From Escherichia coli (GTDB taxonomy: Bacteria; Pseudomonadota; Gammaproteobacteria; Enterobacterales; Enterobacteriaceae): a stretch of DNA of 31,035 bases. Shown piece by piece: positions 2,137-4,748 of the stretch. The position numbers and the translations under genes are program-made. The DNA lies in assembly GCF_003334255.1 (NCBI RefSeq), contig NZ_QOWU01000060.1; one strand, given 5' to 3'. The notes beneath the pieces are model-generated. The model did no database searches, was not told where the DNA came from, and saw nothing but the letters and a program-made list of their open reading frames with translations. Each line of letters opens with the position of its first letter. Position 1 is the stretch's first letter.

Positions 2137-3426
2137 ATGAAAGTATTAGTGATTGGTAACGGCGGGCGCGAGCACGCGCTGGCCTGGAAAGCGGCCCAGT
2201 CGCCGCTGGTTGAGACTGTTTTTGTTGCTCCGGGTAATGCAGGCACTGCACTGGAACCCGCGCTGCAAAACGTTGCTATTGGCGTGACCGATATCCCGGC
2301 GCTGTTGGATTTCGCACAAAACGAAAAGATTGATCTGACCATCGTCGGCCCGGAAGCGCCGCTGGTGAAAGGCGTGGTCGATACCTTCCGCGCCGCCGGG
2401 CTGAAAATCTTCGGCCCAACCGCAGGTGCGGCCCAACTGGAAGGCTCAAAAGCGTTTACCAAAGATTTCCTGGCCCGCCATAAGATCCCTACGGCGGAAT
2501 ACCAGAACTTCACCGAGGTAGAACCTGCGCTGGCGTATCTGCGTGAGAAAGGCGCGCCAATCGTCATTAAAGCGGACGGTCTGGCTGCCGGGAAAGGCGT
2601 TATCGTGGCGATGACGCTGGAAGAAGCGGAAGCGGCTGTTCACGATATGCTGGCGGGCAACGCTTTTGGCGACGCGGGTCATCGCATCGTTATCGAAGAG
2701 TTCCTCGATGGCGAAGAAGCGAGCTTTATCGTGATGGTGGACGGCGAGCATGTGCTGCCGATGGCTACCAGCCAGGATCACAAACGCGTAGGCGATAAAG
2801 ATACCGGACCAAACACCGGCGGGATGGGCGCTTACTCCCCCGCGCCGGTAGTAACCGATGACGTTCATCAGCGCACCATGGAACGTATTATCTGGCCAAC
2901 CGTGAAAGGCATGGCGGCGGAAGGCAACACCTACACCGGTTTTCTCTACGCGGGCCTGATGATCGACAAACAGGGCAATCCGAAGGTTATTGAATTTAAC
3001 TGCCGCTTTGGCGATCCGGAAACCCAGCCGATTATGCTGCGCATGAAGTCCGATCTGGTTGAGCTCTGCCTGGCGGCCTGTGAAAGCAAACTGGACGAGA
3101 AAACGTCCGAGTGGGATGAACGCGCTTCTCTCGGCGTGGTGATGGCTGCGGGTGGATATCCGGGTGATTACCGCACCGGTGACGTGATCCACGGCCTGCC
3201 GCTGGAAGAAGTGGCAGGCGGCAAAGTGTTCCACGCGGGCACAAAACTGGCGGATGACGAGCAGGTAGTGACCAACGGCGGGCGCGTACTGTGCGTCACC
3301 GCGCTGGGTCATACCGTGGCAGAAGCGCAGAAACGCGCCTATGCCTTAATGACCGATATCCACTGGGACGACTGCTTCTGCCGGAAAGATATCGGCTGGC
3401 GCGCTATCGAACGCGAGCAGAACTAA
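2137..3426 (+). CDS. purD: phosphoribosylamine--glycine ligase (GAR synthetase)
   Basis: 429-aa ORF MKVLVIGNGGREHALAWK..., ATP-grasp fold; RBS GGAG at 2127-2130; same operon as purH. Confidence 0.97.
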   Translation: MKVLVIGNGGREHALAWKAAQSPLVETVFVAPGNAGTALEPALQNVAIGVTDIPALLDFAQNEKIDLTIVGPEAPLVKGVVDTFRAAGLKIFGPTAGAAQLEGSKAFTKDFLARHKIPTAEYQNFTEVEPALAYLREKGAPIVIKADGLAAGKGVIVAMTLEEAEAAVHDMLAGNAFGDAGHRIVIEEFLDGEEASFIVMVDGEHVLPMATSQDHKRVGDKDTGPNTGGMGAYSPAPVVTDDVHQRTMERIIWPTVKGMAAEGNTYTGFLYAGLMIDKQGNPKVIEFNCRFGDPETQPIMLRMKSDLVELCLAACESKLDEKTSEWDERASLGVVMAAGGYPGDYRTGDVIHGLPLEEVAGGKVFHAGTKLADDEQVVTNGGRVLCVTALGHTVAEAQKRAYALMTDIHWDDCFCRKDIGWRAIEREQN

Positions 3427-4748
3427 CGCGACAGTTTTGCCAATAGCGTTTTGCGCGTGATCCCTAACTGACGGGCGGCTTCGGTTTTGTTGCCGCCCGT
3501 TTTCTCCAGCGCCGCCAGAATCACCTCTTTTTCCACTTCCACCAACGGCTGAATATCCTGACTTTGTCCCAGCGGGATCGGCGTACTGGCAATCGCCAGC
3601 GGCAGCTCGCGTTCGGAAATATATTCCCCGGTCAGCAGCACCACTGCCCGTTCCACCGCGTTTTCCAGCTCACGAATATTTCCCGGCCAGTCGTAATGAA
3701 TCAACAGATCCATCGCCTGGGGCGTAAAACCTTTTACCGCCTTGCGATTACGCTCGGCAAAGCGCTGCAGAAAATGGCCAGCCAGCAGAGGGATATCTTC
3801 CCGCCGTTGCCGCAGCGATGGTACTTCAATCGCCACCACATTCAGGCGATAGTAGAGATCCTGGCGAAAACGCCCGGCATTCACCTCTGCGGCAAGATCG
3901 CGATGGGTCGCCGCAATCAGCCGGACATCAACCGAGATAATCTGGTTGCTACCGACACGCTGAACTTCGCGCTCCTGAATCGCACGCAGCAGACGCACCT
4001 GCATCATCGGCGAGATATCGCCAATTTCATCGAGAAACAGCGTGCCGCCGTCCGCCTCAACAAAGCGCCCTTCCCGGCGTTTATCGGCTCCAGTAAACGC
4101 CCCTTTTTCGTGACCGAACAATTCAGATTCCAGCAAGGATTCGTTGAGTGCCGCACAGTTGAGCGTTACCAGCGGTTTTTCGCTACGTGCGCTACTGGCG
4201 TGAATCGCCCTGGCGACCAGCTCTTTACCGGTGCCGGAATCGCCGTGGATCAGTACCGTGGCTTCCGATGGCGCGACGAGGGCGATTTCACTGAGCAGGT
4301 GTTGCATCGCCGGGCTTTTACCGACCATACCGAACTGGCTGGCAGTCACCGCAGGTGTTTCAGCATCAATACTGTGCGTATGCGCGAGCGCTTTTTCCAG
4401 CGTCGCCTGTAGGTTATCGAAATCCAGCGGCTTGATGAGATAATCCAGCGCCCCAGTTTTCAGTGCCTCTACCGCCGTCTCGACGCTGGAGTACGCAGTC
4501 ATAATCAGCACCGGAATTGCCGGGTTTAACGCTTTGATCTCTTTCAGCGTGGCGATGCCGTCCATCTCCGCCATTCGCACATCGCAAAGCACAAGATCAA
4601 AAACCTGTTCCCGCACCTGCTCCAACGCCTGTCGCCCGCTGTTCGCCAGCGCGACGTTATAGCCCCAGCCGCGCAGTAAAGCCTGCAAAATAGTGCAGTG
4701 GCTAATGTCATCATCCACCACCAGAATATCGATATTATCGTGCGTCAT
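3423..4748 (-). CDS. zraR: sigma54-dependent response regulator (NtrC family)
   Basis: 441-aa ORF: receiver domain (DDD...K), AAA+ sigma54-interaction domain with GDSGTGKE Walker A and GAFTGA motif, C-terminal HTH. Start ATG overlaps the zraS stop (ATGA at 4745-4748). Confidence 0.96.

Follow-up and report, generated by a model that had tools for sequence, protein, structure and literature searches.

We analysed the junction between purD and zraR in a window of 31,035 nucleotides of Escherichia coli DNA (RefSeq assembly GCF_003334255.1, contig NZ_QOWU01000060.1), the window being the whole stretch of DNA that was examined, and positions below refer to it unless K-12 coordinates are given. Two operons meet there tail to tail, purHD on the plus strand and zraSR on the minus strand, with the following genes and shared element:

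536..2125, plus strand: purH, first gene of the purHD operon (open reading frame, TIGR00355, K-12 annotation)
2137..3426, plus strand: purD coding sequence, with its TAA stop at 3424-3426 (open reading frame, NCBIfam, K-12 annotation)
3423..4748, minus strand: zraR coding sequence, a sigma-54-dependent response regulator (open reading frame, NCBIfam, K-12 annotation)
3423..3426, both strands: CTAA tetramer lying in both coding sequences (sequence; 12 of the 13 orthologous loci have CTAA or TTAA)
4745..6142, minus strand: zraS, upstream gene of the zraSR operon, whose stop overlaps the zraR start by 4 bp (open reading frame, NCBIfam, K-12 annotation)

The assignments of PurD and ZraR were made from scores above the curated NCBIfam equivalog cut-offs (631 bits against TIGR00877, cut-off 288, and 995 bits against NF007689, cut-off 760, respectively), and a search with NCBIfam profiles identified the products of the genes flanking the pair as PurH (908 bits, TIGR00355) and ZraS. 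The plus strand reads CAG AAC TAA at 3418-3426 (context GAG CAG AAC TAA CGC), where TAA at 3424-3426 is the purD stop codon, and the zraR stop codon TAG is the complement of CTA at 3423-3425. As the preliminary description had noted, the two stop codons share 2 bp (3424-3425), and its further statement that the convergent genes have no intergenic spacer agrees with our reading, in which the coding sequences overlap, 3′ end to 3′ end, by the 4 bp of the CTAA tetramer. An annotation artefact could be ruled out as the cause of the overlap, as the positions of both stops are unambiguous and both C-termini are conserved.

The purD and zraR genes (2612 bp together) are 100% identical to those of E. 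coli K-12 MG1655, in which RefSeq annotates the same 4-bp overlap between zraR (4203320..4204645, plus strand) and purD (4204642..4205931, minus strand). The junction is present in 5419 of the 5426 complete E. coli genomes, when counted as at least 80% coverage of a 1051-bp query spanning it, and is no accident of a single strain. Convergent 4-bp overlaps of the CTAA, TTAA, CTAG and TTAG types were described in 2007 by Lillo and Krakauer, who found that four bases is the modal convergent overlap in prokaryotes and counted 58 convergent overlaps in E. coli (PMC2174442). The purD/zraR junction, with CTAA in E. coli and TTAA in Klebsiella spallanzanii, has the identical tail-to-tail geometry and is a plain member of this class, with no difference from it. 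The preliminary description had also argued that the two transcription units necessarily overlap at their 3′ ends, and published RNA-seq analysis supports this, since zraR-purD is one of the 165 convergent excludon pairs in Table 1 of ExcludonFinder (NAR 2025, PMC12288877), a list that requires overlap of the transcripts, as defined by RNA-seq, in no fewer than half of 58 MG1655 samples. Transcript overlap of this kind is widespread, as 276 of 370 convergent E. coli operons (75%) overlap at their 3′ ends, by a mean of 286 nt (Conway et al. 2014, PMC4161252), which weakens polymerase collision or antisense interaction, allowed for in the preliminary description, as a special claim for this pair. 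Taken with the RefSeq annotation, the ExcludonFinder listing and the description of the class in 2007, the purD/zraR overlap is an ordinary compact convergent junction that is already annotated and known. The overlap as such is hence of little importance, being in the reference annotation, with the pair in a published list and the class already analysed statistically.

The distribution of the junction beyond E. coli was followed in two ways. A purD-anchored scan of 80 loci, with one genome per species, found zraR adjoining purD in Escherichia, Kluyvera and Citrobacter. In many further Enterobacteriaceae, among them Enterobacter, Leclercia and Pseudocitrobacter, and also outside the family, purD had no zraR beside it. 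A first search for ZraR homologues returned E. coli and E. albertii only, and a repeat search seeded with the Kluyvera protein reached other genera and gave nine more zraR orthologues (Klebsiella grimontii, K. aerogenes, K. spallanzanii, Kluyvera intermedia, Kluyvera genomosp. 2, Phytobacter diazotrophicus, Kosakonia arachidis and two others). This made a set of 13 intact orthologous loci from about six genera (Escherichia, Citrobacter, Kluyvera, Klebsiella, Phytobacter and Kosakonia). The gene order yjaH> <zraP zraS> zraR> <purD <purH is kept, with the stop overlap, in Citrobacter, Kluyvera, Klebsiella, Phytobacter and Kosakonia. Eleven of the 13 loci have a CTAA overlap and K. spallanzanii has TTAA; in K. 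aerogenes the overlap is 11 bp long, purD crossing the junction in a different reading frame there. Conservation of the tetramer can be explained by selection on the two protein C-termini. In the relatives that lack zraPSR, an ordinary intergenic hairpin lies right after purD, in several cases with a clear T-run, and is followed by a converging gene, which is probably yjaH, judging by synteny.

As Lillo and Krakauer pointed out, the rho-independent terminators of convergently overlapping genes have to sit within coding sequence; of the 116 E. coli genes so arranged, 23 have a predicted one (PMC2174442). On the plus strand, 46 nt past the purD stop and within zraR, we found the arrangement CGGGCGGC-UUCGGUUUUGUU-GCCGCCCG-UUUUCUCC, that is, a hairpin followed by a U-tract in the purD direction:

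3472..3499, plus strand: hairpin, with the arms CGGGCGGC (3472-3479) and GCCGCCCG (3492-3499) and a 12-nt loop (3480-3491), over ZraR codons T417-R426 of the helix-turn-helix region
3500..3505, plus strand: U-tract, TTTTCT in E. coli, over ZraR codons E415-K416-T417
3427..3505, plus strand: putative 3′ UTR of purHD (about 77-81 nt), lying antisense to the final ~27 codons of zraR, as placed by the hairpin and U-tract

Hairpin and U-tract together span codons E415-R426 of the C-terminal helix-turn-helix region of ZraR, where the Gly-Gly codons GGC GGC and the Ala-Ala codons GCC GCC are mutual reverse complements that form the stem on the purD strand, and GAG AAA ACG (Glu-Lys-Thr) is read on that strand as the U-tract. 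The stem consists of 8 bp, G-C pairs throughout, and the hairpin alone has a predicted folding energy of -18.4 kcal/mol. Folding of the hairpin in a context of 48 nt gave -21.9 kcal/mol (z -3.1), a value that none of 200 shuffled sequences matched. The same stem is found at the same offset in all 13 loci, and the U-tract is UUUUUU in nine of them, UUUUCU in E. coli and UUCUUU in K. grimontii. No U-tract is present on the zraR-sense side of the hairpin, and a terminator score of the d'Aubenton-Carafa form ranged over the 13 loci from +2 to +26 in the purD sense and from -35 to -57 in the zraR sense. The element has two hallmarks of an intrinsic terminator, a stable G+C hairpin soon after the last stop with a U-tract directly 3′ of it on the purD strand only. 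Terminator loops in E. coli are typically 3-8 nt long, and the 12-nt loop, with at most two weak inner pairs, lies outside this range; a consensus terminator scan allowing loops of 3-8 nt only did not report the 3472-3499 hairpin for this reason. The U-tract of E. coli itself is short (UUUUCU). The consensus scan did report a plus-strand inverted repeat at 4076-4101, in the region coding for GAFTGA, which we rejected as a chance occurrence, since it lies 650 nt downstream and shows no invariance of four-fold or six-fold codons. A search of Rfam gave no match at the purD/zraR junction.

We looked at synonymous sites for constraint on the hairpin beyond that imposed by the protein. In a codon alignment of the 13 zraR sequences, the other genera share a fraction of only 0.51-0.58 of third positions with E. 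coli, so that synonymous sites are close to saturated. Of the four-fold-degenerate codons, 107 encode an amino acid that is the same in every sequence; 11 of these codons were invariant, and five of the 11 are the contiguous stem codons T417 ACG, G418 GGC, G419 GGC, A424 GCC and A425 GCC. All five stem codons are thus invariant, compared to 6 of 102 elsewhere in zraR (Fisher p 4e-6). At the loop codon T422 each of the four bases occurs in third position, and three occur at R426, which lies directly outside the 8-bp core. When the whole of zraR is scanned in windows of 10 codons, synonymous invariance peaks at codons 417-426 (7 of 10; p 0.004 by permutation for the window maximum, also when stratified by degeneracy). 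Across these 13 sequences, the synonymous invariance indicates selection on the hairpin that goes beyond protein coding. The stems never vary in the 13 loci and so offer no covariation; they support a constraint at the nucleotide level, which is not in itself proof of RNA pairing. AtoC, the closest E. coli paralogue, has QEGNRTRTAL at the position of the motif and no hairpin, and because its motif differs, it is no usable control for whether the hairpin is generic. The cross-genus constraint on synonymous sites of this putative embedded terminator is a small addition to the known picture.

From its position, strand asymmetry and conservation, we infer that the hairpin and U-tract at 3472-3505 are the intrinsic terminator of purHD, an assignment that we consider likely. 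The preliminary description had held that the junction left no room for a terminator, which is correct for the intergenic space but does not extend to the transcripts, as a terminator-like hairpin in the purD direction lies in the zraR coding sequence and a published Rho-dependent region, described below, lies within antisense purD. The predicted purHD 3′ end falls in K-12 at about 4204561-4204568 on the minus strand; nothing is listed at 42045xx or 42046xx, or under the name zraR, in the curated Term-seq lists that accompany Adams et al. 2021 (PMC7815308). The same lists also miss most other pur operon ends, those of the purK, purC and purL units among them, so that their silence at this junction is weak evidence. 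The TERMITe and SMRT-Cappable-seq supplements contain no entry for purD or zraR.

Two other accounts of the conserved hairpin were weighed against this assignment. The stem might have no function beyond coding and simply follow from a preference for GGC (Gly) and GCC (Ala) where the protein motif is conserved: GGC GGC and GCC GCC are automatically complementary, and the amino-acid motif T417-R426 of ZraR is invariant. Elsewhere in zraR, however, the codons of 23 of the 25 conserved Gly residues and 26 of the 30 conserved Ala residues vary among the 13 sequences, the only two invariant Gly codons being those in the stem, and the stem stands at the gene-wide peak of synonymous invariance, which makes this account very improbable. 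The element could otherwise serve zraR, as a determinant of mRNA stability, a site of translation pausing or an RNase site, or could act at the level of DNA, with purHD being ended by Rho further downstream. The same stem does form in the zraR-sense RNA (-16 to -17 kcal/mol), past the purD stop the RNA in the purD direction is likewise rich in C (GC skew -0.29 to -0.38 over 3460-3580), and the missing purHD 3′ end in the curated Term-seq lists would fit such an arrangement. Against a role in zraR, the adjacent U-tract is found on the purD strand only and is kept or lengthened in other genera, and the hairpin, lying 47-75 nt upstream of the zraR stop, cannot be the protective 3′ end of a complete message. 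Moreover, its place 46 nt after the purD stop is where relatives without zraPSR have their purD terminators. We thus regard a function in zraR or in DNA as unlikely, and an intrinsic terminator of purHD remains the reading that we favour.

In the opposite direction, a different mode of termination is suggested for zraSR. The RNA past the zraR stop lacks a hairpin followed by a U-tract, and its folds are unremarkable (z -0.6 to -1.0); a scan of the 3′ part of purD gave no peak of synonymous constraint and no conserved embedded element. The relevant feature on this side is the following:

3100..3300, minus strand: C-rich, G-poor RNA running from zraR into antisense purD (GC skew; Rho peak at window position 3157)

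The GC skew of the plus strand is +0.16 to +0.22 over 3060-3300, C hence exceeding G on the minus strand. A Rho termination region has been reported in K-12 at 4204911 on the plus strand, antisense to purD (Rho score 4.28, p 5.7e-8; PMC7815308, supplementary file 2), and the exact coordinate map places it at window position 3157, 266 nt past the zraR stop. The published reads at this position were 74 upstream and 17 downstream in untreated cells, and 172 and 169 with bicyclomycin (PMC7815308), that is, read-through increases when Rho is inhibited; as the read counts are low, the support for Rho at zraSR is modest. Untranslated C-rich, G-poor RNA lies upstream of the termination region, as is characteristic of Rho-dependent termination. 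The situation is the same as in the Rho suppression of antisense read-through described in PMC7815308, in that untranslated C-rich antisense RNA is involved, and no difference is apparent. Among the earlier genome-wide Rho studies cited there is that of Peters et al. 2012.

The best explanation, and one that we hold to be probable, is that of an ordinary junction at which purHD ends at an intrinsic terminator within zraR and zraSR is ended by Rho in antisense purD. Transcription of purHD would most likely stop at the terminator embedded in the zraR coding sequence, and the purHD mRNA would carry a 3′ UTR of ~80 nt lying antisense to the zraR 3′ end. Transcripts of zraSR, for their part, would continue beyond the zraR stop into antisense purD, as C-rich RNA that is not translated, until Rho stopped them within ~270 nt. 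The extent of the overlap would then be ~80 nt of purHD 3′ UTR on the end of zraR together with up to a few hundred nt of zraSR read-through on the end of purD, bounded on one side by the embedded intrinsic terminator and on the other by Rho.

The defining functional property of an excludon is reciprocal repression, and the 3′ overlap might accordingly exist for a mutual antagonism of purHD and zraSR, with RNase III cutting the sense/antisense duplex or polymerases colliding head-on, in which case purine starvation would lower ZraR or zinc induction would lower PurD. Inclusion of zraR-purD in the E. coli excludome of ExcludonFinder (PMC12288877), the conservation of the overlap across genera and the coverage of ~27 zraR codons by the putative purHD 3′ UTR can be cited in its favour. 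However, a coverage-based call of overlap is to be expected for this pair, given its overlapping coding sequences, and is hence uninformative, three quarters of convergent E. coli operons share the property (PMC4161252), and the conserved tetramer is accounted for by the two C-termini. A terminator that limits the purHD overlap to ~80 nt, with Rho acting on the opposite side, speaks for containment of read-through rather than its exploitation. Compared to excludons in general (PMC12288877, PMC4161252), zraR-purD is itself on the list, its transcripts overlapping according to the literature, but the overlap appears bounded on both sides, and the pair is a member by virtue of transcript overlap only. 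No link between purD and zraR expression was found in the literature searched, and in the p19 dsRNA supplement there is no zraR entry and the purD row is neutral. We regard mutual antagonism as an unlikely purpose of the overlap. A narrower possibility, to which we give still less weight, is that the purHD terminator is deliberately leaky, so that under purine limitation read-through, together with the ~80-nt antisense 3′ UTR, would lower ZraR by duplex formation, RNase III or collision. If this were so, the envelope and zinc stress response would be tied to purine status, and the sequence of the ZraR helix-turn-helix would be constrained to keep a control element.

Under the favoured reading, with purHD ending inside zraR, the junction resembles the terminators embedded in a convergent partner that were described in PMC2174442, which likewise consist of a G+C hairpin and U-tract inside the converging coding sequence and are dual-coding. 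The purHD hairpin differs from these in its long loop (12 nt), and the cross-genus synonymous constraint on its stem is an added observation. It would be a clear dual-coding case, in which the codons for Gly-Gly and Ala-Ala in the DNA-binding motif of ZraR double as a terminator for the converging operon, and it would illustrate that a junction without intergenic space need not be one without a terminator. Recoding or deletion of zraR could, on this reading, disturb the end of purHD transcription.

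The zraPSR module is patchily distributed across Enterobacteriaceae, as seen at the loci directly downstream of purD in the purD/zraR comparison (L003-L020 and others). Enterobacter, Leclercia, Pseudocitrobacter, Phytobacter massiliensis and others lack it between purD and the converging downstream neighbour, probably yjaH, but Phytobacter diazotrophicus and P. ursingii have it. This pattern of presence and absence implies that the three-gene module was gained or lost as a whole, flush with both neighbours.

The far edge of the module (window 6803-6809) is as tight as the purD/zraR edge. 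The zraP stop TAA (6803-6805) is separated by a single base from the yjaH stop (complement of 6807-6809), and in other genera the two stops are spaced by 3-12 nt. No hairpin with a U-tract was evident at the zraP/yjaH junction on either strand, and the RNA of the yjaH direction, which runs antisense to zraP, has a very high C content. At this edge, a strong region of Rho termination has been reported at 4201402 (+) in K-12 coordinates, with a Rho score of 17.2 (PMC7815308), and the yjaH-zraP pair is also among the ExcludonFinder entries (PMC12288877). Within the module, the zraS stop and zraR start codons lie in a 4-bp overlap (window 4745-4748) of the ATGA type, the usual same-strand arrangement, which is linked to translational coupling.

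Over 1 kb at the purD edge (window 2900-3950), only 1089 of 5421 E. coli genomes match K-12 at 99% identity or more, and 4312 show 95-99% identity; the purD/zraR locus thus occurs in E. coli as rather divergent haplotypes. Two rare ZraR variants of this species, P0001 and P0002 (single-member each), have lost the TAG stop (window 3423-3425) and continue into antisense purD by 15 or 28 residues, giving lengths of 456 and 469 aa, which is the product expected from mutating the shared stop tetramer. In Klebsiella aerogenes (L085 3822-3832), purD crosses the zraR junction in another frame (C-terminus ...REKTNG*), and its stop lies 7 nt deeper in zraR, so that the overlap is 11 bp versus 4.

The zraR gene itself carries an imperfect 12-nt tandem duplication, GAGCAGGTGCGG/GAACAGGTT, at window 4602-4622 (codons 43-49), which codes for EQVR-EQV in the receiver domain. 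Since E. coli alleles of 437 aa with one repeat unit (e.g. P0040, 188 contigs), 441 aa (the K-12 form) and 445 aa with three units (P0012) occur, this indicates a length polymorphism by repeat slippage.

Disrupted or possibly disrupted copies of zraR were also found. In strain JP538 (NZ_AP025180.1), the region matching window 2900-3950 has an IS1A inserted in zraR, which splits the gene into two annotated fragments adjoining purD. In E. albertii NBRC 107761 (L001), a 1-nt insertion at about 3845, near codon 262 of zraR, reflects either a pseudogene with a frameshift or an error in the draft assembly; ZraR is intact at 441 aa in many other E. albertii entries, and NBRC 107761 keeps the zraR 3′ hairpin and the CTAA junction.

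Elsewhere in the window, Rfam matches three RNA elements, all expected in this region of the E. coli chromosome:
11788-11888, + strand, TPP riboswitch
17581-17741, + strand, sroH sRNA
27077-27138, - strand, P26
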